Below, in pieces: positions 8,885 through 49,426 of a stretch of 64,000 nt of DNA. Location of the stretch: IMG/VR virus record IMGVR_UViG_3300010233_000007, one strand, 5' to 3'. A model generated the notes under the pieces. The model searched no databases. It was not told where the DNA came from and was given only the letters and a program-made list of their open reading frames with translations. The translations under genes and the position numbers were made by a program. Numbering within the stretch: the stretch's first letter is position 1; each line of letters begins with the position of its first letter. Origin of the DNA: an uncultured virus (IMG/VR IMGVR_UViG_3300010233_000007) (lineage: Duplodnaviria > Heunggongvirae > Uroviricota > Caudoviricetes).

Positions 8885-9196
8885 ATGTCAGATCAAGTTA
8901 TAACCGTGGCTGAACAACCGCAACCAGTGCCAACCACGCCGTTTTTCTCAAATAAACAATCACATATCGTTGTTGTCGATCTTTCAGCTGAAGATTTTGA
9001 CAGCCTCAGTGTAGAAAGCCAAAATGCTGAAGTCGTTGAGGCCATCGGTAATGCGTTCGCTAATTTGACTAATCAGATCGATGCCGGGGAAGTTGATTTC
9101 GATAAACCACTTCGTTCAATTGTTGTCGGTAAACCACACACCGACAACAATACGCAGAAGAAGCTGGTCACAATCGTATTTAGTTTCGATAATTAA
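8885..9196 (+). CDS. hypothetical protein
   Basis: AGGAG RBS, 103 aa. Confidence 0.7.
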   Translation: MSDQVITVAEQPQPVPTTPFFSNKQSHIVVVDLSAEDFDSLSVESQNAEVVEAIGNAFANLTNQIDAGEVDFDKPLRSIVVGKPHTDNNTQKKLVTIVFSFDN

Positions 9197-12100
9197 AAGC
9201 TGAGCGGGTCATCATTCCAATTGCTGTCATAATTACCTAGTGCCTGACTCTGCTCATCTGATAATGCAGTATTTTGGTATTCTACTTCAGACAACACCGG
9301 CCAATTTCCAGTCATATGCCATAAAGCGCAAGCTCCGATGTTTACTGCTTGAGCAAAGTCATCAGGAAACATCGGATTGCGCTGTATGGTGTATATGTCG
9401 CCAGCGTGATGGGTATTAATTTTGTTTTCGATCAAAGCCAAGAAGTCGTGTAATAAGCCAGGATCGTCGTTATTAATATAATCATATTTGAAGAAAAGTA
9501 CCTTCTTTAGTTTAATAGCATGACACGTTAATTGAAGACTTCTAGCTTTATCCACACGCCAGAATGCTCGGCTATTTAGATTGGTCGGAGCCACATACGA
9601 CATATAATCATGTTTGGCGGTTCTGACGTAAGCGATGGGAATAATACGGTCTGGTGAAACTCCCTTATGCACAAGAACAGTTTCACGAATAGAGCCAGCA
9701 CCAGTGTAATCGTGCGCAATCATGTGACAGTCAAATAAGCTAAACAATCGCATACACATTGATGCTTCGCCCATATGATCGTGCGGTGTTAATGATTTCT
9801 TAGCAAAGATCACGTCAATTCTGCCATCACCTCTAATACCCATGACAACGGCAACAGTAAAGCTGACTTCTTTTTCACCGCCGCCGCCCCAGTCGATTGC
9901 TAGAATTCTGTAGTCGTATTGATTTAAAACTTTCAAAGCCTCTTCTTCAGTGTTCTCATGAAGAATAGCGGCTTGTTGTAACTCAGATTGAGTTACAAGT
10001 TTCATGCCTGTATCGTATGATTCGCCTAATACTTCGTTATAAAATCGGCCAATAGTAAAATTACCTTGGCCACGTTGTTTGCCGAGAAGCGACGACCATT
10101 TGTCATTTGACGTAAAGTGAGTTGGCATGATTATCTGTGGAATATGATAACCAGCAAAATTCCAGCGTTTTTCGGGGTACTTGTGAACCCATCTACCTTT
10201 GCGCGGAAATATTGATTTTCTGCATTTAGCACATATCACCGCAGGTTTGGCTTCACTGATATCTTGTCGCCAAGGACCAATCATTTTTTCTACATCATGG
10301 GATAAGCAAGGTACATTATCATAATGACAGGCATCGCATCTAATTACCCACTCCGCGCGACTTGAATCAGACCAAAGACCTTCGATGGTGTTATCTAAAG
10401 TTTTTGGAGTTCCAGTAAACTGTATAACGCCCCAATCATCAGAGCCAGACATGGTTTCTTTGATAATAGGGATATGATCACGATCCATATCTTGAACTTC
10501 ATCTATATTCACCATAGACGCATCAATACCACGAATACGATCAGCATCAAGTAATGCAAACGAGAAAAACAATTGAGAATTGTTTTTGAACGATCTTTGT
10601 AATACCGAATTGACTGTGTTTGTGTTAATTAGAATAGATTTGACGGGCGATGTGTTTATCATCGGCCCAACATTATTCCCAGAAAAACGCCTAATTTGTT
10701 CAAACAATGGTGTGACGGTGAGAATATTAAAATAAGGCTTGCTGGCCGCTAAAAGAATTAACTTGGCAGCGGTAGAGGTCGAATTATGGCTAACTATACC
10801 ATCATAAATATAGTTGTGCCGACCGTCTGTTTCTATGTCAATACTGTCGTTAGCTTCTATGTGTTTAATGAATTTGATTCTATCTACAACTACATCGTTA
10901 TTAACATACTTATTTAACTCTCGATAATTTACATCACGCTGTTTTAACAATCGTGTATATCGTCTCAACATACTAACAGTTGTAGATTTTTGATGTTTTC
11001 TTCTACACAGCAGCATCATGGGCGGTAGTTTTACTGATGCTGCTTGCACAATGTTTTGTAACGTTTTCATCGCTTCTATAGGAACCGATTTACGTTCCTG
11101 TGCTTCTTTCACTTTCACAGACCGTTTGCCGGGCGCTCTAATTAATTTTAAAAATAATTTACATCCAACAGCGGTTATAACGACGACATTATAAACATCT
11201 CTACAACTAACATAATCACCATTTTTAGCCTTATAACCGGCCTTCTTTTGGTGTATCGATGTCGGAATTCCTAACTTATTTAATAATGATCTGACGCCGT
11301 GCGCAAGATTGTAACACGTTGTAGAGTACAAAATATCCGCATGGCCGTGGCGTCGTTTAATCATACCGTCAGTTGCCCACAACCTAGACAAGAATAGAAT
11401 GGTATTCGTTCGCGATAAATCATAAACCCAGTCCGGTAAAGGTTTTTCATATGAGTATTTACCAAGCAATTTATCTTGTACAAACCATTCGACCATTTTG
11501 CTGTTAGTATGACAGCATATTTTTGTATTAATATTGCCATGCTTTTCCAAACGAACAGGGCGACCTTCTTGTAATGCTTCGGCTATTTTTTTAAATTCTT
11601 TTAATACTTTCACCGATTTTGATGTAAATGTTAAATTTCTCTGTACACAGCAGCCGTCGCCTATCATATAAGCTGTCATAATAATCCTACTGCGACATAT
11701 AGGCTTATCAATAAAACTACCGCCGTTTCTAATAGCGACAATCTCATCACCAGGTTTTAAATCCCCGGCTTTTTTGTATCCGGCAAAAGTTAAAAGCCGA
11801 TGTTCAGCGGTTACATATAGTTCTGATCCGAAAGCCGTCTTTAAATATAATCCCGGCTTAACACCTGTGTTGTAGATATTGGTTACAGTGTGCGTTGTCC
11901 ATTTCAATGTTTCATCATTTAAAGCTAATAATTTGTCGCCAATTTTAACATCTGCTGCTTTTATTTGTTTACCGTTAGAGAGTCTTATAAGAGATTTATC
12001 TACTAGCATATTACACTTACTTATTTGACGTGCGGCCTTAACCACGACATTCGATGGAAGTCGAGTTCTGAATAGTGGCTCCATCGCAAAATGATTCTTT

Positions 12101-12252
12101 AGAGTATATGGCTTACCTTTCAAATTCAGTAAAAGAGGTAATAGTGGAACAAGCGTCTGTAAACCTATTCCTTCTTTTTCCACAAACTTCTTAAAAGTAG
12201 TAAGACGTTCATTCCAATTAGTAGACTTTTCAAAATCAATCAAATCATTCAC
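9193..12252 (-). CDS. terL: terminase large subunit (GpA-like) with intein
   Basis: KAARQISK|ST P-loop, IDEVQD Walker B, GTPK, CxxC pairs, AIDWG nuclease motif; probable GTG start at 12252. Confidence 0.85.
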   Translation of the reverse strand: MNDLIDFEKSTNWNERLTTFKKFVEKEGIGLQTLVPLLPLLLNLKGKPYTLKNHFAMEPLFRTRLPSNVVVKAARQISKCNMLVDKSLIRLSNGKQIKAADVKIGDKLLALNDETLKWTTHTVTNIYNTGVKPGLYLKTAFGSELYVTAEHRLLTFAGYKKAGDLKPGDEIVAIRNGGSFIDKPICRSRIIMTAYMIGDGCCVQRNLTFTSKSVKVLKEFKKIAEALQEGRPVRLEKHGNINTKICCHTNSKMVEWFVQDKLLGKYSYEKPLPDWVYDLSRTNTILFLSRLWATDGMIKRRHGHADILYSTTCYNLAHGVRSLLNKLGIPTSIHQKKAGYKAKNGDYVSCRDVYNVVVITAVGCKLFLKLIRAPGKRSVKVKEAQERKSVPIEAMKTLQNIVQAASVKLPPMMLLCRRKHQKSTTVSMLRRYTRLLKQRDVNYRELNKYVNNDVVVDRIKFIKHIEANDSIDIETDGRHNYIYDGIVSHNSTSTAAKLILLAASKPYFNILTVTPLFEQIRRFSGNNVGPMINTSPVKSILINTNTVNSVLQRSFKNNSQLFFSFALLDADRIRGIDASMVNIDEVQDMDRDHIPIIKETMSGSDDWGVIQFTGTPKTLDNTIEGLWSDSSRAEWVIRCDACHYDNVPCLSHDVEKMIGPWRQDISEAKPAVICAKCRKSIFPRKGRWVHKYPEKRWNFAGYHIPQIIMPTHFTSNDKWSSLLGKQRGQGNFTIGRFYNEVLGESYDTGMKLVTQSELQQAAILHENTEEEALKVLNQYDYRILAIDWGGGGEKEVSFTVAVVMGIRGDGRIDVIFAKKSLTPHDHMGEASMCMRLFSLFDCHMIAHDYTGAGSIRETVLVHKGVSPDRIIPIAYVRTAKHDYMSYVAPTNLNSRAFWRVDKARSLQLTCHAIKLKKVLFFKYDYINNDDPGLLHDFLALIENKINTHHAGDIYTIQRNPMFPDDFAQAVNIGACALWHMTGNWPVLSEVEYQNTALSDEQSQALGNYDSNWNDDPLSF
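10783..12015 (-). mobile_element. intein (411 aa) with LAGLIDADG homing endonuclease in the terminase P-loop
   Basis: starts with C, TAEH block B, YMIGDG and LWATDG endonuclease motifs, ends SHN/S. Confidence 0.9.
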
Positions 12253-12261
12253 GAGAAAATT

Positions 12262-12856
12262 ATGCCTCCGAAAGCAAAGCAGAAACCACCAGAGCAATCT
12301 GTTGGATTGGTTGTTAGTGGGATTTTAGATAAGATATCAATAGGCGTAGCTCAGATAGTTTTAGGTATTTATGCGTGTTTTAACGCAGAAACAAAAGCGT
12401 ATCTAGCTAATTACCAGTATATCATCAACAATTTGTCATCTATAGAAAATGGTGAGTAATCATGGCAATTTCCAGTGCTAGACAATATATGCGAAAAGCC
12501 GGTATCAGGTACATTGAGAATCCAGCAGTGTTCAAACGCATTAATGTTCAGGATAATTTGGTCAATACAGTTAAAGCTAAGCTTCCAACTAATGTATCTA
12601 CTTTCATAGACAGGTACGATAGTCCTGATAAAGTTAGACCACCAGCAGGCGGCAGTTAGTTATGACAGATTCGCATTATTACTGGAGTCTGAAGATGAGT
12701 ATGTGGATGGTAGGAGTTGGTTTAGTCACATCATTTCTAGCTCATACCATTTGGCCATTTGTGATTAGTCTTGTTGCTGTTTATTGTACGCATAACTATC
12801 TTAATCGTGTTGAAGCGGCAGAGAAAAAGTACACTAATGGCAAGAAAGATGTATAA
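12262..12856 (+). CDS. three small hypothetical ORFs (12262-12459, 12462-12659, 12662-12856)
   Basis: tightly packed 64-65 aa ORFs; the last is hydrophobic. Confidence 0.55.
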
Positions 12857-13681: not shown

Positions 13682-14107
13682 ATGGATCAAAACTCAAGAT
13701 CACGTAATCTATTCGTTGATAAGGTAGCTGAAGAACTTAATACATTTTCAAATAAACTTTGTAATCTAATCCCAGAATTAGGCGGACTAACTCTTATACC
13801 ACTATGGCGACTGGAAAGTGAATCTTTACCAGCGGCTATGATATTCTTTATTAAGGAACTGGAGAATTCACCAGATGCCTTAATAGGAATGCTTGAACAA
13901 ACAAGGCGAGCATTAGAACATCAGATAATAGCTGTACAAAGTCATGTGGACAAATTATCAGCACAATGTCAGAGGTTATCCATTCTTATAAATGGCAAAG
14001 AAAAAGTCCTGGAACAAAAAGCGGCCCAGATCAGCGCTATCGAAGAAAAAGCGAATAAAGCGCAAAACACCGCCCAAAACAGTAACCAGGGCGCAGCAAC
14101 ATCGTGA
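13682..14107 (+). CDS. coiled-coil hypothetical protein
   Basis: 141 aa. Confidence 0.65.
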   Translation: MDQNSRSRNLFVDKVAEELNTFSNKLCNLIPELGGLTLIPLWRLESESLPAAMIFFIKELENSPDALIGMLEQTRRALEHQIIAVQSHVDKLSAQCQRLSILINGKEKVLEQKAAQISAIEEKANKAQNTAQNSNQGAATS

Positions 14108-14687
14108 TCGAATGAAACTCAGCACTATTCAAGAGATAATGACTCATTTAGGAATTTATTCACAAAATTGGGATGTTCTACTTATAGGCGATGGTTCCGG
14201 ACAAGGCTGGGAGATGGGTTGTGGTTGGGCTTGTGTTCTTATAGATCATTATTCAGCTAGACGTAAGCTGTTCTATGGCGCGATGAGTTCTGGAACAATA
14301 GGACTAGCTGAACTATTGCCATATTTTCATTCGATGTTGTGGTATTCAAGGGGTCCAGGTAAGAGTCGATTAGATAGACTGCAAACAACGCGTAAATCTA
14401 ATCCAATTCTTCAAGTTCACATTATTACAGACAGCGAGATTATTGCCAAACAAGGTAACGGTCACGCGAAGATAATTAATAATCGCGAACTATGGGCCGC
14501 GTTTGATCAGTTCTCGAAAATGGGTTATGCCTTTAAATGGCATTGGCTGGAAAGAGATACCATAGGCTTGAATGCATTAACAGACCATATTTCACGGGAG
14601 TCGAGACGTTCTGTAGAAAAAGTCCAACTACCAGAAGGAGTATCAATCTATGACTACAACATCTATCGCCGTACAGACCAAGAATGA
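13992..14687 (+). CDS. rnhA: ribonuclease H
   Basis: GDGS, AEL, TDS, NRELW, W.W, N..TD catalytic pattern. Confidence 0.8.
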   Translation: MAKKKSWNKKRPRSALSKKKRIKRKTPPKTVTRAQQHRDRMKLSTIQEIMTHLGIYSQNWDVLLIGDGSGQGWEMGCGWACVLIDHYSARRKLFYGAMSSGTIGLAELLPYFHSMLWYSRGPGKSRLDRLQTTRKSNPILQVHIITDSEIIAKQGNGHAKIINNRELWAAFDQFSKMGYAFKWHWLERDTIGLNALTDHISRESRRSVEKVQLPEGVSIYDYNIYRRTDQE

Positions 14688-14877
14688 AGAAGCAACCATG
14701 ACTATTGGTGGAAAAGAACGAGCGATGGCGTTAGCTAGCATTCTTGTTATGCACGACATTCCGTTCCACTGCGGTTATCTTGGCTCGGAGTTGTACAAGT
14801 TCAAATTACCGAAAGAATACGAGGATCAAGTTGAAGACTGGATATCGGTAACTTTGTGATAGCTAAAAGAAACTGAA

Positions 14878-14915
14878 AACACAGGCGAGTAGGGATGAAC
14901 CTACTCGCCTGTGTT
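14878..14915. terminator. 16-bp perfect stem, bidirectional terminator at a convergent junction
   Basis: AACACAGGCGAGTAGG/CCTACTCGCCTGTGTT. Confidence 0.8.
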
Positions 14916-14917
14916 GT

Positions 14918-15142
14918 TTACTTCACCCGTTTGTAGTGTGGACGTTCGATCTCAATCACGAACTTTCCCGCTCGCTGTGGATACGAGAAGATAAGTCGTG
15001 GCCCAACCTCTCTGATGCTATCGGCGCAGATCTTTGCCTTTCGAAAAGGTTTTACTCGCTTCGACCAGAGTTTTGTCATTGTCTCCGTCAGTTCGTAGAT
15101 CTTCCCGTCGTCACTTTCGAACCGCGCGCATTGAACGGTCAT
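14918..15142 (-). CDS. hypothetical protein
   Basis: GGAAGGAAAGGGA before ATG at 15142. Confidence 0.6.
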   Translation of the reverse strand: MTVQCARFESDDGKIYELTETMTKLWSKRVKPFRKAKICADSIREVGPRLIFSYPQRAGKFVIEIERPHYKRVK

Positions 15143-15208
15143 TTCCCTTTCCTTCCATGTTAGAGAATCCTGATGATTGATTATTGCTCCTTTACAATAA
15201 TCAATCAA

Positions 15209-15281
15209 TGGGCAGTATCCGACTTGAACGGATAACCTCCTGAATGTAACTCAGGCGCTCTGCCAATTGAGCTAACCGCCC
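15209..15281 (-). tRNA. tRNA-Val(TAC), CCA not encoded
   Basis: GGGCGGT/ACTGCCC acceptor, GCTC/GAGC D-stem, CCTGA-GTTACAT-TCAGG, TTCAAGT T-loop. Confidence 0.9.
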
Positions 15282-15598
15282 AGAACTGCAACACTGGTAA
15301 TTGATGTGGTAGGGTCCGTTTACTCTGCCATATTCAGATACGCAATGTTGCAGTCCAACGCTGATGCCCCGATACATTGAAATGAATTTAACCTCTTTGT
15401 TGAGGCGTATCGATCCAGGACCAGGTGAAGATGGGCGAAGATGACGAGAAGTAAGCTGACATTCCAACGAACACACTCGTCCTCTCTCAGATGGAACTTA
15501 GGACTTCACAGGAGTGTATTTGTTAGAAAAGAAAATGTCAGTTTGGATTCTATAAGACGCAGTTGCCAGATCCTCAGACGGATGTGATTGGTCGAAAA

Positions 15599-15833
15599 CG
15601 CCTAGACTTAGCAGCCACCACGCAGGGAACAACCAGCAAAGGCTCGATAATGGTTGTTCGTCCGTATTACTACAGCGACCGCGTTTGAGGTGGGTTTTGT
15701 TCGAACTTTAAACGATGAGAGTTCAGCTTTGAAAACCTGAGCTTTGATCGTTAAGGTTTGAACTTTGAGTTTCGAAAGATTATTAATCTTTTTGGCGGGC
15801 CATTGCTTCTTCCCATTTCGTTAAGTCTAGGCG
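15599..15833 (-). ncRNA. structured RNA containing ten degenerate AAAGYUC heptamers
   Basis: 12-bp closing stem 15599-15610/15822-15833, internal hairpins, heptamer array 15703-15773. Confidence 0.65.
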
Positions 15834-15844
15834 CATCTGTGAAC

Positions 15845-16384
15845 TTACACTTGGACCTGAACAGTTGCGTTCTTCAGAGAAAGCTGTCCATCCAGATTGT
15901 CAGCGATTTCCTGCACTTGTTCGATCCGCTTTCGTAGTTCGGTTTCGTCGATGTTGACGATGATGTCAGTGGCGACAGCTTGGGCGTCATCAGGTTTCAA
16001 TGCGCCTGACTGTCGCGTGGCTTGCTGACGGGCGACATCAATTCTTTGCCTGATCTCGCTCAACTGTTTCAGCTCGACAGCCATCACTTCCCTCTTCCAC
16101 GTCAGCCACTCTGAAATCGATCTGACTTGGCCGGCGATTGTCACTTGTGCCTCGTCGTTGGCCTTCGCGATAGCCCGGCGGATCTTGATGACACGTTCGT
16201 TCAGGTCGCGTACCGATTGCTGCTCGCCAGCCAAGACTTTCTTGCTGCCGCCCTCCTTTTCGAATGGGTCTTTCACGTGACCCGCTCTGGTCAGATGGAT
16301 GTTGATTGTTTCCTGTTTTTTGGCCAGCTTGTTGCGGATCAGCTTCAGTTCTGCCAGCGCCTCCGTGATCGTGATCTGTGCCAT
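15845..16384 (-). CDS. small coiled-coil protein (DIP1984-like pattern, unverified)
   Basis: MAQITITEALAELK...LS.KNAT.V; AGGAG RBS. Confidence 0.8.
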   Translation of the reverse strand: MAQITITEALAELKLIRNKLAKKQETINIHLTRAGHVKDPFEKEGGSKKVLAGEQQSVRDLNERVIKIRRAIAKANDEAQVTIAGQVRSISEWLTWKREVMAVELKQLSEIRQRIDVARQQATRQSGALKPDDAQAVATDIIVNIDETELRKRIEQVQEIADNLDGQLSLKNATVQVQV

Positions 16385-16411
16385 GAGATTCTCCTGAGTT
16401 TTGATCGTTGA

Positions 16412-16439
16412 AACTTTCTAATTACGTAATTAGAAAGTT
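16412..16439. promoter_or_regulatory. perfect 28-bp palindrome; best copy of the TTCTAAT-N6-ATTAGAA box
   Basis: AACTTTCTAATTACGTAATTAGAAAGTT. Confidence 0.7.
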
Positions 16440-16441
16440 AG

Positions 16442-16529
16442 TGTCGCAAGCAAGATTCGAACTTGCACGGAGAATTACCTCCACAGGTGTCTAAAACCTG
16501 CGCGTATTACCAGTTTTCGCCATTGCGAC
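16442..16529 (-). tRNA. tRNA-Leu(TAG)
   Basis: GTCGCAA/TTGCGAC acceptor, CAGGT-TTTAGAC-ACCTG, long variable arm, TTCGAAT T-loop, A73. Confidence 0.9.
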
Positions 16530-16643
16530 ATCAGTGGATCACTTTCGTAATCCACCGACACAGCTATTCCCTCTGTCCAAGCTGCCAAGACAGAAAGGAG
16601 GCATCGTTATAGCCGGGGAAAACACGGCTACAACGGAGGAGGG

Positions 16644-16796
16644 TCATTTTGTCAGCAGATGCAGGATGGCCGTGACAATGATTGTGAGAACGGCCCACAC
16701 CAGAAATATGAAAACGAAGAAGCAACCCCAGCGGACACAACTGCCTTTACGTCTGATTGGGAGATAGTAACCAGACAGATGCACTCCATCGAACAC
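16644..16796 (-). CDS. 50-aa membrane peptide (not in ORF track)
   Basis: AAGGAG then GTG; MFDGVHLSGYYLPIRRKGSCVRWGCFFVFIFLVWAVLTIIVTAILHLLTK. Confidence 0.65.
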   Translation of the reverse strand: MFDGVHLSGYYLPIRRKGSCVRWGCFFVFIFLVWAVLTIIVTAILHLLTK

Positions 16797-16807
16797 TTCG
16801 CACTCCT

Positions 16808-17272
16808 TTACGAAATGAATAGAGGCGTATCCATATTGATTTTCCGAATTGGCAGAGCTTTGCCGCTCTCGTACAACGTTTTCCAGTCGGCCAATTGCAG
16901 AAAATCAGTTACTTGTCTGACTATCTTGGTTTCATCATCGACCCAGATTATACCAAGATATGATGAAGTTGCTATTCTGGTCAACTGCTTGATAAACAGC
17001 GGGATGTTCTTTTCTGCCTCTTTTTGTTTAAACCATACAAAAAAGATCATCATACCATCATCACCACAAGCAAATCGAAGTTTAGCAATAGTCGCATTTT
17101 GGTAGGATTCAGCACGATGCAGAACTCCGACAGGCCAAAAGGCTTCCATTGGCCCTGGTATTGGTTTGGGTAGCTCGTCTTCCTTGATGTTGAAAAAATC
17201 AAGAATGACAAGCAGCTCGGGGTCGTCGATATGTGAGTGTATCTCGGCACTTGGTTGAAGATTGCCGAACAT
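16808..17272 (-). CDS. hypothetical protein
   Basis: AAAGGA before ATG at 17272. Confidence 0.7.
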   Translation of the reverse strand: MFGNLQPSAEIHSHIDDPELLVILDFFNIKEDELPKPIPGPMEAFWPVGVLHRAESYQNATIAKLRFACGDDGMMIFFVWFKQKEAEKNIPLFIKQLTRIATSSYLGIIWVDDETKIVRQVTDFLQLADWKTLYESGKALPIRKINMDTPLFIS

Positions 17273-17520
17273 GTGAAGTCCTTTCATTGTGGGATGAAAA
17301 TGTTGTTGTCTGAGGTATGCTGTTATGCCAAAGGAGATTTTGGTAACTTATGGTGCTCGTTGTTCTCGCTAGCAAGAACATTTGAACTGAACCTGTTGCC
17401 AGCCAGCCGCGCCTATCACGGTGACGGCCCAACCACTACGAATACCACTCTGATGATATCGTCTGGAAACACAGGATTGATCGAGGACAGGTATCCCGCA
17501 TTTTATGCGCCCCCACGTCA

Positions 17521-17616
17521 CTGCCACAGGATGCACTGTTACCAGGCATTCTCTCTTGCTTTGCGCAAGTCCACTTTTTAAAGGATGGATACTGCTAGTC
17601 CCACCTCCCGCAGACA
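17521..17616 (-). ncRNA. RNA resembling 23S rRNA helices 43/44 (L11-binding region)
   Basis: GGAGGUGGGACUAGCAGUAUCCAUCCUUUAAAAAGUG...GUAACAG, with compensatory base pairs. Confidence 0.7.
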
Positions 17617-17625
17617 ACAACAAAG

Positions 17626-17861
17626 TGCTTCGAATCTTGACTCGAACAAGAAATCAACACCGACAAATTCAAATATTAGCCCCAATTATGCTAGTGGCTG
17701 CAATGGGACGGGTGCAAAAGCCGACACATACCACTATCTCCCGGAATTAGCACAACGGAAAGGACGGAACGCAAACAGGAAGGAGGCTTGTGCTAATTCA
17801 TATTTGAAATTTCAGCTTGCGGATTAAACCGCTGTTGACCAGGCCGACCCTGTTTCGAAGC
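17626..17861 (-). ncRNA. 236-nt tRNA-like RNA with a large domain in place of the anticodon loop
   Basis: 8-bp acceptor GCTTCGAA/TTCGAAGC-A, T-arm TCTTG-TTCGAGT-CAAGA, D-like hairpin, nested long helices. Confidence 0.7.
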
Positions 17862-17883
17862 GAGAGATTGTATATCTCTAATA

Positions 17884-17998
17884 TGGCCGAGGCGCGAGTC
17901 GAACGCGCACGAAGCCTAAGCTTCACGAGCTTTTAACTTGGTAGTCGATAAAAGATCGGACTATTCAGCTCGTGTGTCTGCCATTCCACCACTCGGCC
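17884..17998 (-). tRNA. tRNA-Leu(TAA) with a 30-nt insertion (17937-17966) in the anticodon loop
   Basis: complete Leu-type cloverleaf; removing the insert gives CGAGC-TTTAAAA-GCTCG. Confidence 0.8.
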
Positions 17999-18097
17999 AG
18001 AAATCACCCAACCACCTCGAAAATGGTTGGGTGAGCCCAGTCTTTTCCACGTTGTCTTCGCTTGCACCTCCCATCTGAAGATACAGAGTTATCTCCA

Positions 18098-18487
18098 CTA
18101 TGCAGACAGTTCTACCGGTGTGTAGACGTGCGCACCGAAATCGAATGCGCATTTCGTTGGCACATCATCAGGTAGATTGTCTTCACCGATGACTGAACAC
18201 AGAAACAGCAGTGTGCATCCGTCACTACCAATCAGGCCGAACTTTCGAAATTGACACTCTTGTCCATTGGCCTGTCTTTTGGCAGACATAGTGCTGGAAT
18301 CGAAGCAGTAGCATCTCCAGGCGATGATCGTTGTCGGCCACAGCAACCATAGAGCTGTCAGAAACGCTTCAACATATGTGTTTCTGACATACTCCTGATT
18401 GCCTGCCGGTTCTGGTGTTGGTACTGCGACGCAGGCGAAGCACTGTCCGTCTGGCGTATGGACGATTCCTTTTCTTCCACGAATCAT
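18098..18487 (-). CDS. hypothetical Cys-rich protein
   Basis: AGGAGGAG RBS. Confidence 0.7.
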   Translation of the reverse strand: MIRGRKGIVHTPDGQCFACVAVPTPEPAGNQEYVRNTYVEAFLTALWLLWPTTIIAWRCYCFDSSTMSAKRQANGQECQFRKFGLIGSDGCTLLFLCSVIGEDNLPDDVPTKCAFDFGAHVYTPVELSA

Positions 18488-18497
18488 GTGGCTCCTC

Positions 18498-20195
18498 CTA
18501 GATGATCAGGCCCATTTCTTGCAGCATAGCGATGGAGAAGATGGCTGCGGCCTCTTTTTGCCTGAGCATGGCGTAGAAAAACTTGCCCTGCCCCCAAGTA
18601 GAGCAGAAATCCAATTTTCGCCAGCCGTTTGAATCATCTTCTTCTGCCGGAAGTGCGTATTGCCATCCGCTGATCCATGTCTTGATCAGCAGCTCCGAGA
18701 CAGTGAGCAGCTCCGAGACAGCGAGATTCGCCAGTATGAGATTGTCGGTGTTTAGTATTTCAAACTGAAATACTATACATTCTTGCTGACTGTCTGGGTT
18801 GTCGTTCACGCACACCCGACAGACATGTGGCCCATTTACCAGTGTCAGCACTTGGTCCTCCTTTTCCTTGGGCCGAGTTTTCTCCTTCGGCAGTTCGACG
18901 AGCGCATTCCTTCTTGGTTCTTCCGTCTTGGCCTTTTGTCCGAAGCCGAGCTTGAGCGTGAAGAGCATATGCATAGCCGCAGCCTGAATGGACGCCCAAT
19001 ACACGGCGGGCACACCGGTAGAAAGCACGTAGAACTGACCGATGATGCTACGACCTTGAGCTGCCACGATTCGTGTGCCATCAGGGAAGTTGTAGTCTCC
19101 ACAATGGTCTTGTTGCGGAAACACGTATCCGGTGGCTATCGCTGCTGCTTCGGGCGTAGGAAAGTTGCCGTCGTATTTGTCGTCTTTACGGTAGCACCAA
19201 TCTGCCGAACAGTACCAGACCTGGTAACTGTTCGGTAGATTGTAGACTCCGCGATCATCCCGTTGCGGCAGCGGAAGCAGCACGGGATTGTTCGTTCCGT
19301 CGGGCACTGTTTCCTCCTTTTTGGCGGCTGTTGTGTTTTCTGTGGTGAATCCTTTCTTGAGTGTGTAGAGAAGAAAAGCAGCGGCTTCTCTGCGGTCGGC
19401 GAAATATCGAATTCTGTCGTCACCGTTGATTCGGTATGGTTCGCTGCCATTGCATACGAACCATGAACGATTATCGCACGACTTGCTGATCCGGTGACCA
19501 TCTGGAAATTTGTATTCCCCCGATATCGATATGTAAGGCGTAAACACGAATCCAGTGTATCGTGCCGCATCTTCTGCTGTTGCGAATGGTCCACATGTTT
19601 TTGTCTCGTTGAAGCTACCATTTTTACAGGAGCGCCAGCTTCTGTTCGGCAACTGATATACATTCCAGCCATTGGGCAAAACATAGCTGATGAACGAGCC
19701 TAGTGTACAATCATGCGGCAGCGGCGGAAACGGCAGGACTTCAGATTGCTCGCTTGTTGTCTGTGTGATGTCTGCTTTCCTCTCTTGTTTGTTGGCTTCT
19801 CGTACCACATTCAACGCTTGGGCAGCTTCGAGTGATGTGTCGTAATACCCGCCGCAGTTACCATGAGCCGATTCACAACGCCAACCACGAGCAGCGCGGG
19901 CAATGCGTGTTCCGTCTGGAAACACATAATAATCTATGTGTGACACTGTTGACATTAGCGGCAGCAGATGGCCCAAAGCGACAGCGGCTTCTTCTGGTGA
20001 CTTAAACTCCTGACTTCTTTGCTGATAGTCTGTGACATCGCCAGTCACCAGTAATTCATGCCCGTCTTTGTTGATAGCGTACCATTTTCCATACGCCATA
20101 ACTACGTTTGATCCGTCTGGAAATCGGTATTCAGTGGGCATTCCTCCAGGCGTTCTGGTGTGCGGCTCAGGCATTTTGTAGACGAACTCGGACAT
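18498..20195 (-). CDS. repeat-domain protein
   Basis: about six Y.(F/L)P(D/N)G...W...A.A modules; AAAGGA RBS. Confidence 0.8.
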   Translation of the reverse strand: MSEFVYKMPEPHTRTPGGMPTEYRFPDGSNVVMAYGKWYAINKDGHELLVTGDVTDYQQRSQEFKSPEEAAVALGHLLPLMSTVSHIDYYVFPDGTRIARAARGWRCESAHGNCGGYYDTSLEAAQALNVVREANKQERKADITQTTSEQSEVLPFPPLPHDCTLGSFISYVLPNGWNVYQLPNRSWRSCKNGSFNETKTCGPFATAEDAARYTGFVFTPYISISGEYKFPDGHRISKSCDNRSWFVCNGSEPYRINGDDRIRYFADRREAAAFLLYTLKKGFTTENTTAAKKEETVPDGTNNPVLLPLPQRDDRGVYNLPNSYQVWYCSADWCYRKDDKYDGNFPTPEAAAIATGYVFPQQDHCGDYNFPDGTRIVAAQGRSIIGQFYVLSTGVPAVYWASIQAAAMHMLFTLKLGFGQKAKTEEPRRNALVELPKEKTRPKEKEDQVLTLVNGPHVCRVCVNDNPDSQQECIVFQFEILNTDNLILANLAVSELLTVSELLIKTWISGWQYALPAEEDDSNGWRKLDFCSTWGQGKFFYAMLRQKEAAAIFSIAMLQEMGLII

Positions 20196-20255
20196 TTGGA
20201 ATTCCTTTCATGAGGTAAAAAGAATCGGACCATTACCCAAAAAGGTAAAGATCTT

Positions 20256-20294
20256 GTCTACATTATTATGACTGTATAACGGCGAATATTTAGC
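20256..20294 (-). promoter_or_regulatory. island promoter motif, copy 1
   Basis: GCTAAATA-N15-TCATAATAATGTAGAC. Confidence 0.75.
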
Positions 20295-20349
20295 AGTACG
20301 AATCATTTCTAATTTTGCAATTAAAACGATCAAATCGCTAACGGAGACT

Positions 20350-20658
20350 ATGATGACTACTCTCGCTGTTGCTTGTCCACATCAGGCCAAGCCCACTCTG
20401 CACTATGACGTTTCATTTACTGGAGAGGATCGCGCCGAAGCTAATGAGGCAATGCAGCTTCTGGCGGAATACTTCCAGCAAAAGAATCTTATGTTCTGCT
20501 ATTACAGAATTTGTTGCGAATATCCGGTATATGCTTTCTATTTGAATACTTTGGGTAGGCAAGAATTACGCAAGGCAATCAGGGATAATATATTTGAATC
20601 ATTGCATTTGCGGTTAGGACTCAAAGATAATCGTGCAGAATCATTTGATCAGCGCTAA
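20350..20658 (+). CDS. hypothetical protein
   Basis: GGAG RBS; lies between two islands. Confidence 0.65.
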   Translation: MMTTLAVACPHQAKPTLHYDVSFTGEDRAEANEAMQLLAEYFQQKNLMFCYYRICCEYPVYAFYLNTLGRQELRKAIRDNIFESLHLRLGLKDNRAESFDQR

Positions 20659-20664
20659 TAGCTA

Positions 20665-20704
20665 AATAAACAGTTAATCCGGAATTCCGGATTAACTGTT
20701 TATT
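20665..20704. terminator. perfect 40-bp palindrome at a convergent junction
   Basis: AATAAACAGTTAATCCGGAA|TTCCGGATTAACTGTTTATT. Confidence 0.75.
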
Positions 20705-20707
20705 GAC

Positions 20708-23353
20708 TCATTCCATATCACTGGCTGGAATCTGTGTCTTGGCGCGGCGAAATTCGGCCTTGGCGAAGAACACTATATCATCGAAAGTGTCACACGGTAT
20801 GATCTTGATTGCGCGAAGCAAATCGAAGATCACAGGGACTGTGAAGTTGTGTCCAGTCTGCACATCGTTGAAGTGTGTTTGTGCCAGGACGACGATGACG
20901 CTGTTGTCTGTGCTGAACATGAGATGAAGATCTCTTGTCGAACCCGCTTTGACGTATCCTTCGATGAAATGAAGCGCGTCGAGAGCTTTATATGGCTCGA
21001 TGTTGAAAGTGAACACGGTCAGATTAAGCCTACCCTGCGGCAGCTTCATACTGTGGTTGTTGATGACCGGCTTGAGCGGTTCGTACAGTGTTCCTACCTT
21101 TTCCTCCTGTTGTTGAACCATCTCTTCTTGTTGTCTGTTTCTCTGGTGTGTTGCTGCCGCCATCTGCTCAGCCATCGGATGAGTGGTCACGGTTTCGACC
21201 TCCTTTACTTTGGTTAGTGGTTGTTGCGTCTTGAGCTGCCCCTCGTCGGATTGCAGGTAGTTGAGAAGAGCGGCTTTGAGTGTGCGGTGACTAGCCGTGA
21301 ATCCTAATCCTTTCCGCTGGCCACTTACACACCAGCTTCCGCTATCTTCATACCATGTCAGATTGTTACGGAAAGGTTTTTCGTCCTCGCCGCACAGCCG
21401 AATGAAAGCGTCGATTGTGGCTTTCGCCTGGTTCATCGTCGGCAGTTCGCTGGTTGGTTGCGGCTGCTGTATCTTCTGCTGCATCTCATCGGATTGCAGG
21501 TAGTTGATAAGAGCGGTTTTGAGTGTAGGCTGGCTGGCTGTGAATGGTTTTCCATTTACGGTACCACTCACATACCACACTTGTTGGCTGTGCCGCGTCA
21601 ATCGACCGAAGAGCTGTGTGTCGTCACCGAACAAACGGCAGAAAGCATCGATGACTGCTTCCGCGTTGGCCTGTGTTGACATCTCCTGAAGAGCGTTGCG
21701 GTTCTGTGGCGTGTTTTCTTTCATTGAGTCGGGTTCATTCGAGAGGGCGGCTTGTAGGGCGTGGGCGTGATTGGCACTAACCCGTTTTGCCGCGTCGAGC
21801 GCAGAGGCATACTCTCTTTCTCTTGTGAGAAGGGTTTTTAGGGCGCGGGCGTGATTGGCGCTGATCTGGAATGCTGCTTCGATGACGTCGGAGTATGTCA
21901 GGGTGATTATAGCCGACGACGGCAGTCGCCCGTAGAAACCTTCCCCAGTAGCGTAGATCTTCACACCGTCCGAGAAGATGAACCCATTGAGATCGTCGCG
22001 TTGAGCGGTTAGTGGCGGCGATTGCACTTCTTTCTCCTTTCGTGGCGGCGTTGGCTTGATTGTGAATGGGAACTTGGCGTCGTACTCAGTCAGCACACGT
22101 CCGTGCTCCTCGCTGATGGAAGAGGCGGCGGAGATAGCACTACTGAATCGAGTTTTCTCATAGCCGTCGAAAAAATGCGGCCTCTGAATCGCGTATGCGA
22201 AGTCGCCGTTATCCCAGTAGTGAATCTGGTAGTGGTCTGAGAAGATGTAGCGTGGTCGTGCGTCTGTAGGGTTGATCTGGACGACGGTGAGCGGGGGCTT
22301 TGTTTCTTCCTTTCTGGGCGGTGTTGCGATTCTTTGCTCATCGACGTACCGCTTGAGTAGCTCGTCGAAGTTGTTGATGCCCAGAAGTTGCGCGGCTAGA
22401 ACTGCATTGGGTTGTTTTGCTTGCTCGCCGTTTCCTGGATCGATGCTCCATCCGTACTTGTCATAGGCATACCAGTTAGTATTGCCAGCATCTATCCGAT
22501 TCCAGCTTCTGATGCTTGTGGCATCTGAGAGGATGTACTGACAAGCCCCGTATTCATTTGTGTTGCTGCCTGTGATTCGTAGCGGTGGCTTCTCTTTCAC
22601 TGGGCCGGGCTTGGGGTTCTGTGCTTCTTCGTACTGTCTGAGTAGCTCGTCGAAGTTGTAGATATCGAGAAGAGTTGCGGCTGAGTGCGGTGTGTCGCGT
22701 ATACAGCCGTAATTCACATCCGTTCCATTGACGCTGTAGGCGTGCCAATTGGTATAACCATGCGCTCCTGCCAGGTGATTGTCACTCTGAATGTGCGAAC
22801 CATCAGAGAAGTCGAATCGGTAGTCGCCGAATCCATTGGTCCCGCGACATTTGATTGTGACAGTTTTCATGTTATCCTTTGCTGGTTCGGGTTTTGGTTT
22901 GTTGAATTTATCCAGAAGCTCCTGAAGATTGTTGATTTCCAACGCTTCTTTGGCAGCTGTGGTGTGGCTGGGGTATGCCTTGTCATCGATTGAAATATGA
23001 TCTGGCCCATTGGCATACCATATCGTCGTTCTAGCCGGCCTATATAAATTTGTCCCGTCTGAGAAAGCGATCCTGAACAGCAGGCCGTCACGAGTATCCG
23101 TCAATGCATCGACGATCTCCACTTCTCTCACATCGAGTAGATGAAGATTGACACGCCGGGCTGCATCGATTGCTATGTGCGGCGATTTGTGGTGCCTACT
23201 TCCATTTGTATGCGCGTACTCTGTCCGGCCCTGGTTCGGCCAGCTCAACCACCAGCCCCATTCATGGGCTGCTGGTGTTTGTCTGATGATGACACCGTTG
23301 GGCAGCTCGTATTGACCCATGCTGTTCAGGGGCGGAAGGACGTACCTTGACAT
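20708..23353 (-). CDS. 881-aa repeat-domain protein, related to 18498-20195
   Basis: repeated FSDG...W.A...AA..L.I.NF.ELL modules and duplicated AL.NYLQSDE module. Confidence 0.8.
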   Translation of the reverse strand: MSRYVLPPLNSMGQYELPNGVIIRQTPAAHEWGWWLSWPNQGRTEYAHTNGSRHHKSPHIAIDAARRVNLHLLDVREVEIVDALTDTRDGLLFRIAFSDGTNLYRPARTTIWYANGPDHISIDDKAYPSHTTAAKEALEINNLQELLDKFNKPKPEPAKDNMKTVTIKCRGTNGFGDYRFDFSDGSHIQSDNHLAGAHGYTNWHAYSVNGTDVNYGCIRDTPHSAATLLDIYNFDELLRQYEEAQNPKPGPVKEKPPLRITGSNTNEYGACQYILSDATSIRSWNRIDAGNTNWYAYDKYGWSIDPGNGEQAKQPNAVLAAQLLGINNFDELLKRYVDEQRIATPPRKEETKPPLTVVQINPTDARPRYIFSDHYQIHYWDNGDFAYAIQRPHFFDGYEKTRFSSAISAASSISEEHGRVLTEYDAKFPFTIKPTPPRKEKEVQSPPLTAQRDDLNGFIFSDGVKIYATGEGFYGRLPSSAIITLTYSDVIEAAFQISANHARALKTLLTREREYASALDAAKRVSANHAHALQAALSNEPDSMKENTPQNRNALQEMSTQANAEAVIDAFCRLFGDDTQLFGRLTRHSQQVWYVSGTVNGKPFTASQPTLKTALINYLQSDEMQQKIQQPQPTSELPTMNQAKATIDAFIRLCGEDEKPFRNNLTWYEDSGSWCVSGQRKGLGFTASHRTLKAALLNYLQSDEGQLKTQQPLTKVKEVETVTTHPMAEQMAAATHQRNRQQEEMVQQQEEKVGTLYEPLKPVINNHSMKLPQGRLNLTVFTFNIEPYKALDALHFIEGYVKAGSTRDLHLMFSTDNSVIVVLAQTHFNDVQTGHNFTVPVIFDLLRAIKIIPCDTFDDIVFFAKAEFRRAKTQIPASDME

Positions 23354-23409
23354 GTGAGATTCCTTTCGTGGGTAAGAAAATAGCCACCGAAAAGTCGGCA
23401 GCTAAAGAT

Positions 23410-23448
23410 GTCTACATAATAATGCCAGATTAATGGTGATTATTTAGG
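23410..23448 (-). promoter_or_regulatory. island promoter motif, copy 2
   Basis: CCTAAATA-N15-GCATTATTATGTAGAC. Confidence 0.75.
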
Positions 23449-23616
23449 TTCTAATTTTGAAATTAAAATCTGAAGATAACTCAGCAAATTTACGATAGAT
23501 CATGAACAATTTCTATTTCAAGTCTGTTCCTTGATTTGGGTTAGTGGTAGGCTGGGAACTTATCCACATTTACGGAACAAATCAAATATTGGGATTCTAT
23601 TTGGAGAACTCATTTT

Positions 23617-26600
23617 ATGAGTGATGAGAGCTTTTTCGCCAAAACTATTGCTGAACAAAAATATTGTCATGATAAAGCAGATGGGACGAAGGAGAGTTGG
23701 AGTCAGGTAGCGGAGAGAGTTGCTACGTGTGTTACTAAGCCTTATTTACCGGAGATTACTGAATATATAAGGGAGAGGATTGAACGTAAGGAAATGTTAC
23801 CGGGAGGAAGATGGTTAGCCAATTCAGGTAGAAAATATCCCCAAGTGAATAATTGCGCATTGTTTGATGTGGAGGACAGCCGACAAGATTGGGCAATGTT
23901 GATGAATAATATTGTAAATACGCTCACTACCGGAATGGGGATTGGTGTCGTATACAGTAAGTTAAGAGGTGAAGGTGCATATATTAGTGGCATGGGTGGA
24001 AAATCTTCTGGTCCGTTAAGTTTAATGCAAATGGTTAACGAATGTGGCAGACACATAATGGCCGGTGGAAGTAGAAGATGTCTTGAAGAAAATGCATTAG
24101 TTCATACTAAAATCGGATTAAAGAAAATCAAGGATATCGAAATAGGCCAACTGGTGTTAACTGGTGATGGTAGTTATCACAAAGTTTTAGCAAAACTCGA
24201 TCAAGGTATACAAAACACAGTAAAAATCAAAACTCAGCTTGGTGAATTTGTTTGTACGCCTAATCACAGAATGGCGGTGTTGGCGAATATATATGGTGAA
24301 TATTATTGGAAAGAAGCCAAAGATTTAATCAGTGCAGACAGACTTTTATTCGTAACCAAAACTATACCGGGGCATAAGACTAGATTACCAAAAGACGATA
24401 ATTCCGAATGCGAACACTGGCGAACTAAACAAATAACAATACCTGACCTAGATACAGAAATAGCTTGGTTTTTAGGTTTCTTACATGGCGACGGATGCGT
24501 GCATTATGAATTCAAAAATATTCCCAATAAGGCCAATCGAATCACCATAAATACGCATATTACTGAATATAGTGAATGTAAGAGATTGATAAAAGCCATT
24601 AAAAAATTCGGTATTAAAGCAAAAATAAAACAAGGACATGGTAATTGTTGGTCGGTTTCGGCAGATTCGTTATTACTAACCAAATATTTACTTAAATTTA
24701 AACAATCTAAAGTACCCATGACTATACCTATGTGTATTTTAGAGGGCACACCAGATATTCGTGCGGCTTATTTAGCTGGTGTTTTAGACTCTGATGGTTG
24801 CATTAGTAAGACCATTAGAGCTTGTTGCTCTATTTATAAATCTTATATTTTGCAAGTACAGAATCTATTGGCATCATTAGGAATAGCGTCACGATTAAAA
24901 TTAGACAGGCCAGCTTACGAAAATAGAAAAGATGCATTTAGATTAACTATTAGCGACGTAGGACAGATAGATAAATATATACAGACTATTGGGCCTTATT
25001 CGTGTAAACAATCAAGATTAAAAAAAGCGAAGATATTTCAATCACACCATACTTATTCAGCTCCGGCTAATATGTTGAATATTGATGATAAATGTTGGCA
25101 AAAAACAACATATAATCAAAAAGCTGTATACTATCGTAATGGAAATATACCAATAGACAGTATAAATAAAAGTCATGGGTTCCCAGCATTACTACCTATT
25201 ACAGTTGAAAATGTATCAGCGAATATAGCAATACAAACATACGACATAGAAGTTGCCGGTAGAAATGAATTCGTAGTGAGTGGATTATTGGTACACAATT
25301 CAGCAATATGGTCTGGTTTGCATCATGATCATCCAGATATAGATAAATACATTGATATTAAAAATTGGCCAATTGAAATAAAGAAGCTGAAAGCAAAAGA
25401 TTTCAATTTTCCGGCCACATTAGACATGACTAATATTTCAGTTATTTTAGACGACAACTTTTTCACAGCCTATAATGATACTGACCATCCAAAACATAAA
25501 AGAGCGCACGAAATATACTGGAAAACAGTAAGAAATATGATGATCGCCGGCGAGCCGGGTTTCTCGATAGATGTTGGAGAAAACGCAGGTGAGCACCTTA
25601 GAAACGCTCCTGTTGCCGGTGAAACTCGTGTATTAACAGATACCGGCTATCAGAAAGTTATAGACATTGTAGATAAGCCAGTAACCGTATGGACAGGTTG
25701 GAGTTGGGCAAAAGACGTTAGCTTTAAGCTAACCGGAGTAAAACAGCCAATAATTAAAATAAGTTTAAGTAATGGTAACTATATAAGATGTGAGCCTAAT
25801 CATGAATTTATAGCCGTAGATAGTGACAAAGATATACCAGCATGCGAATTAAATATTAGCACTAAGCTAATGGAAAAACTACCTGATAAAGCGTTTTTTA
25901 ATATCGTAAATATTACCGCCGTAGCTAAAGATGGTTATGATGATGTGTATTGCGCCGACGTCAAACAACCTGAGCATTCTTTTATGGCAGAAGGTGTAAT
26001 TGTAAAAAATTGCACCGAAATAGTATCAAGAGATAATGGCGACGTATGTAATCTTGCAAGTATAAATATAGCAAAAATAAATCATATAGATCAATTTGCT
26101 GAAGCGGTATGGAACACTATTGGCTTTATGTTGTGCGGTACAATTTATGGAAAATTGCCACTGGATATAATGCATACTATACGTGATAAAAATAGACGAC
26201 TTGGATTAGGTTTAATGGGATTACACGAGTGGTTATTAGTTCGTGGTTATAAATATGGCCCAAACCAAGAACTCGGACAATGGTTACAAATATATAAAGA
26301 CACCTCCGACAGTGCGGCTAAATACTGGGCCAATAAACTCGGTATTGTTATTCCTATTAAAAAACGAGCTTTGGCACCAAATGGCAGTATCGGAATTGTC
26401 GCCGACACGACAACATGTTTAGAACCAGTTTTCGCTGTGGCTATAAAACGTCGCTATATGAAAAATAAAAATTGGGTTTTTCAATACATTATTGACGGAG
26501 CGGCTGAAAGAATTATCGCACGCGGGGTAGATCCAGCATTAATTGAAGATGCATATACACTAGCTGAAGATATAGAACGACGAATTGCATTTCAAGCATG

Positions 26601-48859: not shown

Positions 48860-49426
48860 ATGTTACATGGTAAATGTAAAACACCAGAATACAGAGTTTG
48901 GCGAAGGATGTTAGAAAGATGTTATTACAAAAAGAAAGACAATTATATTGCTTATGGTGGTCGCGGCATATGTGTATGTGATAGATGGCGTAATGATTTT
49001 ATGGCCTTTTTACATGATATGGGGCAACGGCCTAGTCCAAAACATTCTATAGATAGAATTAATAATGATGGAAATTATGAGCCAAATAATTGCAGGTGGG
49101 CTACAACTAAAGAACAGGCAAGAAATAGAAGATCGAATAAACTATATACCTATAGAGGCAATACCAAAACAATTGCAGAATGGGCTGACGAATATAATTT
49201 GCCATATCATATATTACATCAACGATTATTTAAATTTAAATGGCCAATTAAAAGAGCACTTACGAAACCACCACTTATAATGATAAAAATTGGCACCGAA
49301 TATAGGACTATGGTTGAACTGGCTAAAACCTACGGTATCCGGCAGGCAACATTGCGACATAGAATTTTTGTCGCTGGTTGGCCTATTGAAAAAGCCCTAA
49401 ACACACCCGTTAAAAAGGCAAAATAA
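48860..49426 (+). mobile_element. free-standing HNH homing endonuclease
   Basis: YGGRGI...SIDRINNDGNYEPNNCRWAT..EQARN plus two HTH-like repeats. Confidence 0.9.

Follow-up and report, generated by a model that had tools for sequence, protein, structure and literature searches.

We analyzed a 64-kilobase (kb) stretch of DNA (below, the window), which is part of a 76,993-base-pair (bp) contig from an uncultured virus (IMG/VR record IMGVR_UViG_3300010233_000007). Judging from its protein content, the window belongs to a large tailed bacteriophage. Its minus strand carries a cluster of transfer RNA (tRNA) genes, and within this cluster lies a 236-nucleotide (nt) element (17626-17861, minus strand) with the outline of a tRNA, in which about 175 nt (168-175) take the place of the anticodon loop. 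This element is a candidate gene for a tRNA-shaped RNA. Our favored reading, to which we give a probability of roughly 45%, is that it encodes a stable RNA that does not decode, is framed by tRNA parts, is of the same kind as the species 1 RNA of phage T4, and is released by tRNA-processing enzymes.

A tRNA-like frame around a structured insert

The ends of the element are an inverted repeat and form an acceptor helix of 8 bp, with GCUUCGAA (17854-17861) as the 5' strand and UUCGAAGC (17627-17634) as the 3' strand (pair probability 0.96). An unpaired A stands at the discriminator place (17626), so that the 3' part of the acceptor spans 17626-17634, and CCA is not encoded at the 3' end. The helix opens with a G:C pair in the manner of G-1:C73, which serves as an identity rule for HisRS. 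After a connector of just one base (A at 17853) comes a D-like hairpin, CAGG-GUCGG-CCUG (17840-17852; pair probability 0.93), with 4 bp and a 5-nt loop. (The loop includes GG, but the places of A14 and A21 are absent.) The equivalent of the anticodon stem has 6-7 bp and is formed by GUCAACA (17833-17839; pair probability 0.97) and UGUUGAU (17653-17659), both in the minimum free energy (MFE) fold and in the pair probabilities. From the 3' strand of this stem, just 1-2 nt lead to the T arm, UCUUG-UUCGAGU-CAAGA (17635-17651), which is supported by the fold, by a descriptor (see below), and by a pair probability of 0.90. Its loop is canonical, of the UUCRANY type, and the arm directly abuts UUCGAAGC. 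In the predicted fold, the two ends thus make up the upper half of a tRNA, in which the 8-bp acceptor and the 5-bp T stem are stacked and a small D hairpin bears GG.

The insert begins with a small side hairpin, GCGG-UUUAAU-CCGC (17819-17832; pair probability 1.00), and continues with the 5' strands of a rod, GCUGA and UUCAAAUAU (17800-17816; pair probabilities 0.91 and 0.98). GCUGA pairs with UCGGU at 17659-17663 (probability 0.91), and UUCAAAUAU (17800-17808) forms a long-range helix of 9 bp with AUAUUUGAA (17668-17676). Next is a perfect 12-bp hairpin (17744-17799, with arms at 17788-17799 and 17744-17755; pair probability 0.94). The rod as a whole consists of stacked helices of 6, 5, 9, and 12 bp. 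The hairpin encloses a 32-nt loop (17756-17787) that starts with GCCUCCUUCC, has no A, and is mostly pyrimidines (26 of 32). The 3' domain of the insert (17677-17743) includes the helix GUCCCA/UGGGGC (17704-17709 with 17679-17684; pair probability 0.90).

The original prediction, which was made from the sequence alone, had described a tRNA-like layout of 236 nt with an 8/5 acceptor-T domain. This layout holds up: the helices are in place by sequence, in the MFE fold, and in the pair probabilities. The helix proposed between the hexamers UAGUGG and CCACUA is the part that did not stand, while all the other named helices were found or predicted. These hexamers lie in the 17677-17743 domain and compete with GUCCCA/UGGGGC; their pair probability is about 0, and imposing their pairing costs 5.5 kcal/mol. 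In the fold model, they could pair solely as a pseudoknot with GUCCCA/UGGGGC.

Several results support the tRNA-like frame. First, the MFE of the 236 nt is -72.8 kcal/mol, as compared to -61.7 +/- 4.3 kcal/mol for 200 shuffles (z = -2.57), and none of the 200 shuffles folded as well as the element. Second, the MFE fold recovers the acceptor, the D-like hairpin, the anticodon stem, the T arm, the side hairpin, the 5-bp and 9-bp helices, and the 12-bp hairpin, with mean pair probabilities of 0.90-1.00. The whole element has about 59 predicted bp, and both the acceptor helix and the 12-bp hairpin are 100% complementary. Third, we composed a cloverleaf descriptor (an acceptor of 7 bp and an anticodon stem of 5 bp, together with a D hairpin, a T arm with a TTCRANN loop, and an insert of at most about 330 nt). 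On the two strands of the window, this descriptor matches tRNA-Val and the element only, and when the whole window was shuffled 100 times by dinucleotides, it matched once; because it was composed after the element was seen, its tolerances are fitted to the element. Finally, a covariance model built from the single sequence of the element (R1) finds the element at 309.5 bits as the sole copy in the window. The tRNA-like frame of the element is real. Because a folded rod replaces the anticodon loop, the RNA is probably unable to read codons. On the opposite strand, the open reading frames (ORFs) have no protein-family match.

Known RNA classes and interrupted tRNA genes

Scans with Rfam and ARAGORN gave no known family and no default tRNA call for the element. 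It reached no Rfam gathering score, and in the 901 nt around it, the models for tRNA (RF00005), transfer-messenger RNA (tmRNA; RF00023), group I introns, and ribozymes had no match to the element at E <= 10. No ARAGORN call spans the whole element, whether introns are allowed or not, at any threshold between 100% and 70%. (A weak tRNA-Ile(aat) with a score of 92.5 is reported solely at 90%; it joins the T arm and acceptor strand from the 3' end of the element to another 5' half.) We also removed the insert in silico, using 16 start points and 22 end points around it, and scored the 352 resulting variants with ARAGORN. No canonical tRNA emerged: none of the variants passes the default threshold, and the best one, an Asp(GUC), scores 98.8. 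As a control, tRNA-Leu(UAA), the neighboring tRNA gene, scores 124.8 once its own insert is taken out. The failure of RF00005 and ARAGORN, together with the excision variants, rules out an ordinary tRNA.

The main rival to our reading is that the element is an interrupted tRNA gene, in which about 168-175 nt at the 5' junction of the anticodon stem and loop (31/32 or 32/33) would be removed by a route that involves neither group I splicing nor an endonuclease of the archaeal type. The product would be a short and odd tRNA, at best Asp(GUC). We consider this unlikely, but it is the strongest of the alternatives, and other genes speak for it. The neighboring tRNA-Leu(UAA) (17883-17999, minus strand; ARAGORN score of 113.9 with introns allowed) carries an insert of 30 nt at 32/33 (17937-17966). 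Compared to four uninterrupted orthologues from related phages, this is a clean gain, and the body of the tRNA is otherwise similar. The 30 nt form a hairpin, are preceded by U and end with G, and are far too short to be a ribozyme. This insert is at the same stem/loop junction as that of the element, so the interpretation of the element as an interrupted tRNA stays alive.

Another case is a tRNA-Met(CAU) from a distant relative (locus L091, 1525-1649, plus strand): comparison with a paralogue 840 nt away (2489-2562) reveals a clean insert of 50 nt at 31/32. The two ends of this insert pair with each other, which would give a helix stacked on the anticodon stem; the gene nevertheless gets 50.3 bits from the tRNA model. 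Together, as far as can be told from the gene sequences, these cases show that inserts at the 5' junction of the anticodon stem and loop recur in this phage family. As for the element, just one 7-nt loop would have U33, namely UUGUCGG (GUC, for Asp); it is wholly 3' of the insert, in the same geometry. Also, a study of Lak megaphages describes "enigmatic" introns of no known class in their tRNAs (Devoto et al. 2019, PMC6784885).

On the other hand, the excision variants stay below the threshold that the tRNA-Leu control clears, and the frame would be strange for a tRNA: the acceptor has 8 bp, the connector has 1 nt, the D loop lacks A14 and A21, the variable region has 2-3 nt, and GUC is followed by G37 and G38. 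The predicted fold places the bases of the putative anticodon in a helix (UCGGU with GCUGA, probability 0.91). The known splicing routes do not fit either. Consistent with the original prediction, there is no group I core: RF00028 has no match at E <= 10. Group I introns have a U before the 5' splice site and a G before the 3' splice site (Williams 2020). We enumerated 8 sites by hand for both possible stems, and none combines U-1 and omega-G with a 7-nt loop that contains U33. By eye, we found no bulge-helix-bulge in the element or in tRNA-Leu(UAA); no motif program was run. And protein-family scans of the 89 ORFs in the window found no RNA ligase or splicing endonuclease.

A broader version of this idea is that the inserts in the element, in tRNA-Leu(UAA) (30 nt), and in tRNA-Met (50 nt) are all one undescribed kind of intervening sequence. 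They would be located at the 5' junction of the anticodon stem and loop (31/32 to 32/33) of phage tRNA-type genes, would fold as a helix that continues the anticodon stem with the 7-nt loop bulged on the 3' side, and would be removed by neither the group I nor the bulge-helix-bulge route. We think that this is quite improbable. If it were true, the 236-nt gene would give rise to a short tRNA-like RNA and to a free rod RNA of 170 nt with the pyrimidine loop.

The phage, its relatives, and its tRNA cluster

The window encodes a gpA-type large terminase that is split by a LAGLIDADG intein, a class II ribonucleotide reductase that carries a second intein, a DNA polymerase A fused with a uracil-DNA glycosylase domain, an SbcCD-like pair, a helicase, and a primase. 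Among the proteins added by a second protein-family scan are one with sigma-70 region 4 and one with a macro domain. The phage looks like one with a bacterial host because of the sigma-70 region 4 protein and because its genes are led by Shine-Dalgarno (SD) sequences. (The LAGLIDADG inteins in the large terminase and the ribonucleotide reductase are at 9193-12297 on the minus strand and 23617-26898 on the plus strand, and a free-standing HNH endonuclease gene lies between the helicase and primase genes, at 48860-49426 on the plus strand.) Among related contigs, those that have terminal repeats measure about 200 kb.

The polymerase and the terminase have many relatives, on contigs of up to about 230 kb. 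We compared 80 loci from IMG/VR and 70 metagenome loci, with terminase identities of 37-57%; the closest relatives (67-72%) are outside this comparison. At the DNA level, BLAST found no match to positions 15000-19000 in the phage collection. A 565-amino-acid protein encoded next to the element has no relatives in IMG/VR or in a search of 5.8 billion proteins. Neither PolA as a single query in IMG/VR nor an alignment of close terminases in GTDB genomes gave a match.

For the element itself, we found no homologue in the collections that we searched. Exact patterns from its 3' end are not present in IMG/VR, JGI metagenomes, or GTDB genomes, and an exact pattern from the 3' half of tRNA-Leu(UAA) is not present in IMG/VR. 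Using BLAST to compare the element and its neighbor to 38 related phage records gave only chance matches of 11-27 nt, and R1 had no real match in these records. Among the 70 metagenome loci, R1 has weak matches in two (L138 and L155), which we rejected: they are within protein-coding ORFs and have neither a T arm nor a fold signal. The two ends of the element are unlike any tRNA of the relatives. The gaps after tRNA-Leu(UAA) in the relatives contain small ORFs and no RNA that resembles the element.

This orphan status is what would be seen if the element were a relic, that is, a former tRNA gene that was wrecked by insertion or by recombination among the clustered tRNAs, and that is perhaps transcribed but has no function. 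Also, the tRNA body scores below threshold, and the cluster has been rearranged: its order in the window is Leu(UAA)-element-Leu(UAG)-Val, while the order in relatives is Lys(UUU), Leu(UAA), Val(UAC), Ile(UAU) in some loci, Glu(UUC), Leu(UAG) or Leu(CAA), and tmRNA (8 loci: L090 and L093-L099; Leu(UAG) or Leu(CAA) is present in 7 of the 8). Chimeric tRNAs do occur in the family. For example, a tRNA-Ile(GAU) in L090 (2458-2559, minus strand; RF00005 score of 53.9 bits over 101 nt) has two anticodon-like arms: its D arm and its GAU arm are separated by an additional hairpin whose shape is that of a UAU anticodon arm. However, mismatches would be expected in a decaying gene, and the perfect long helices of the element argue against decay: about 59 predicted bp are kept, the long helices have no mismatch, the z score is -2.57, and the canonical T loop is intact. 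A caveat is that this argument is weak, because helices that are intact would follow just as well from a recent origin. Overall, we see a relic as rather unlikely.

The clusters of these relatives end with a tmRNA in all 8 loci (RF00023, 97-150 bits), and the window has no standard tmRNA. ARAGORN identified tags in 6 of the 8 loci and in one more locus, L104; these include GAYAPALAA, GASAPALAA, and GTFNSVPALAA. The tmRNAs are on the minus strand in L090 (910-1257), L093 (766-1113), L094 (965-1308), L095 (1247-1603), L096 (914-1264), L097 (1222-1578), and L098 (775-1131), and on the plus strand in L099 (5923-6272) and L104 (5488-5836). (L099 also has a match to the Pistol self-cleaving ribozyme at 1274-1344 on the plus strand, 190 nt upstream of tRNA-Lys, with 58.1 bits against a gathering score of 34.5.)

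It could be proposed, then, that the element is a very diverged or cut-down tmRNA that has replaced the ordinary one. The topology is similar, with a tRNA-like domain that closes a large insert and with a possible pseudoknot. But the original prediction had noted the lack of a G3-U70 pair and of an evident tag ORF, and we find the proposal hardly credible. Neither RF00023 (at E <= 10) nor an nhmmer search with a profile of 8 tmRNAs from related phages found anything on the element. The sole tmRNA call from ARAGORN, at the 70% threshold, is of the "permuted" form and borrows the neighboring tRNA, so it is spurious. There is no tag frame: in the sequence, the reading frames that cross 17744-17799 have ...SGR or ...PLC as their last residues, instead of a hydrophobic tag that ends in AA. 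A G3-U70 pair is the identity rule for charging tmRNA with alanine. The element lacks this determinant, as had been noted; all 8 of its acceptor pairs are Watson-Crick, and position 3 is U-A. Given the rule, the lack of a G-U pair in the acceptor excludes charging with alanine. Finally, the contig has 77 kb, of which the window covers 64, and related genomes have a size of about 200 kb; a tmRNA may lie elsewhere.

A gap of 21 nt separates the element from tRNA-Leu(UAA), its upstream neighbor on this strand, and downstream of the element are tRNA-Leu(UAG) (16441-16529, minus strand) and tRNA-Val(UAC) (15208-15282, minus strand), both of which were identified by ARAGORN and Rfam. None of the tRNA genes in the window encodes CCA. 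The tRNAs are interspersed with minus-strand ORFs in a run that begins near 23353 and ends at 14878-14915 with a strong terminator-like hairpin. As there is no terminator-like site between the upstream genes and this hairpin, the element is probably within a long transcript that needs to be cut.

The same arrangement would suit an element that is nothing but a processing signal. Its frame would mark the sites where RNase P and RNase Z separate the message of the upstream structural genes from the downstream genes, and the insert would have no role. We find this very doubtful: tRNA-Leu, 21 nt upstream, already supplies a cut site, and a highly ordered insert of 175 nt is unnecessary for cutting.

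Other features of this region deserve mention. A stretch of 322 nt that lies directly downstream of the element is closed by an inverted repeat of 15 nt (17301-17315 and 17608-17622; 93% complementary). The 338-nt gap at 17288-17625 folds better than shuffles do (z of -2.38), and according to these fold predictions, 17301-17622 on the minus strand may be a second structured RNA. A mechanical ORF of 84 amino acids (17369-17623) overlaps the 322-nt stretch. It has no protein-family match and has 1 marginal match among 1.84 billion representative proteins. The minus-strand block at 14000-24000, where the tRNAs lie together with two large ORFs that are orphans (565 and 881 amino acids), has a G+C content of 45-51%, as compared to 37-41% for most of the rest of the window.

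Proposed maturation and the nearest known systems

If the element encodes a stable RNA, as we favor, then host tRNA enzymes would recognize its tRNA-like frame, and the 5' end would be made by RNase P. Because CCA is not encoded, we propose that RNase Z or exonucleases cut after the unpaired A and that CCA is then added. This would free a stable 236-nt RNA from the long transcript. It is plausible that RNase P, RNase Z, and the CCA-adding enzyme would recognize this frame. There is also precedent for phage RNAs other than tRNAs being processed by RNase P: a published source (PMC11143913) lists M3 RNA and the precursor of the C4 antisense RNA of phages P1 and P7.

The working part of the RNA would be the replacement for the anticodon loop, with the rod, the side hairpin, the possible pseudoknot, and the 32-nt pyrimidine loop on its 12-bp stem. 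The loop would most likely bind a purine-rich partner, which could be an RNA such as a ribosome-binding site; or it might be bound by a pyrimidine-tract-binding protein. The original prediction had proposed that the loop pairs with SD sequences. The phage does use such sequences, as SD-like words precede 38 of 88 mechanical ORFs (as compared to 7% of random sites), but the case for an anti-SD role is weak. The loop lies within the second-longest run without A on that strand of the window. In the fold model, the loop could be masked through pairing of its CUCCU with GGGAG at 17738-17742, immediately 3' of the hairpin.

Some observations weigh against our reading. The anti-SD word CCUCCUU occurs 9 times in the window, so it is not statistically special, and the longest complementarity between the loop and any target in the window is 10-11 nt, which is at the level of chance. 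Because no homologue was found, the structure has neither support from covariation nor proof of selection. The frame departs from that of a tRNA in its 1-nt connector, its 5-nt D loop without A14 and A21, and its variable region of 2-3 nt. And there are clean inserts at the same junction in tRNA-Leu(UAA) and in the tRNA-Met of a distant relative; given that the UUGUCGG loop is placed 3' of the insert, the element's insert might be of a removable kind as well.

Clusters of tRNA genes in phages are usually read as plain supplies of tRNAs. Here, the parts of a tRNA that are recognized in processing seem to have been kept, and the decoding loop has been swapped for an ordered domain. If the RNA is made and is stable, it would be a large and distinct addition to the little-studied tRNA look-alikes of phages, and it would be a natural "tRNA scaffold" that displays a single-stranded loop of 32 nt. 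If instead the inserts are excised, this would imply an undescribed route for tRNA splicing in bacteria or their phages.

We then compared the element to known systems. Like the tmRNAs of the relatives (RF00023), it has a tRNA-like domain (acceptor and T arm) that closes a large structured insert, it is in a tRNA cluster, and it lacks CCA. Unlike a tmRNA, it has 236 nt instead of about 350, it has a real D stem, and it has no ring of four pseudoknots, no G3-U70, and no tag frame. With group I introns that sit in tRNA-like genes of bacteria, it shares an insert in the region of the anticodon loop, but there is no match to the core and no usable U-1/omega-G site, and the possible pseudoknot would leave just 21 and 7 nt for the P4-P6 domain and P8. 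The introns of the Lak phages (PMC6784885) resemble the insert in tRNA-Leu(UAA), in that they are inserts of no known class in the anticodon region. They are located in tRNAs that can be classified, while the body of the element is not canonical after in-silico removal of the insert; the lineage and the host differ too.

The likeness to selenocysteine tRNA (tRNA-Sec) that had been noted for the 8/5 fold is partial. Bacterial tRNA-Sec (RF01852) also has a 13-bp stack of 8 + 5 bp, and the D arm of the element can be drawn in a similar way (6 bp with a 4-nt loop and one A-G mismatch). However, the element has no match to RF01852 at E <= 10, no 7-nt loop with UCA, and no long variable arm, and its connector has 1 nt. 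(In this region, RF01852 matches only the neighboring tRNA-Leu, at 23.6 bits.)

C4 RNA, a phage regulatory RNA, acts by pairing at a ribosome-binding region. It is short and lacks the full frame of acceptor, T arm, and D arm. For the loop of the element, the search of the window gave no target beyond chance-level matches. What the two would share is maturation by RNase P, since the C4 antisense RNA of P1 and P7 is listed among the substrates of this enzyme (PMC11143913).

The closest system is the species 1 RNA of phage T4 (rnaC; NC_000866, 70908-71046), which is listed together with the species 2 RNA (rnaD). It is annotated as a small stable RNA and lies at the distal end of the T4 tRNA cluster, on the strand of the tRNAs. 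Its fold has a canonical T arm (CCGGG-UUCGAAU-CCCGG) beside a terminal helix, with long arms at the places of the anticodon and the variable region. The element likewise has a terminal helix with a canonical T arm and no usable anticodon loop, and it too is in a tRNA cluster on the tRNA strand. The T4 RNA has no Rfam family of its own and has only a sub-threshold match that is tRNA-Sec-like. To our knowledge, its function has been unexplained since the 1970s. The two RNAs differ in size (139 nt and 236 nt), and by eye their sequences are not alike. The terminal helix of the T4 RNA is imperfect, and it has no 32-nt pyrimidine loop. The T4 RNA is a known stable RNA, while the element is known from its sequence alone. 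Given these comparisons, the element is best filed as a new, large variant among the poorly known tRNA look-alikes of phages.

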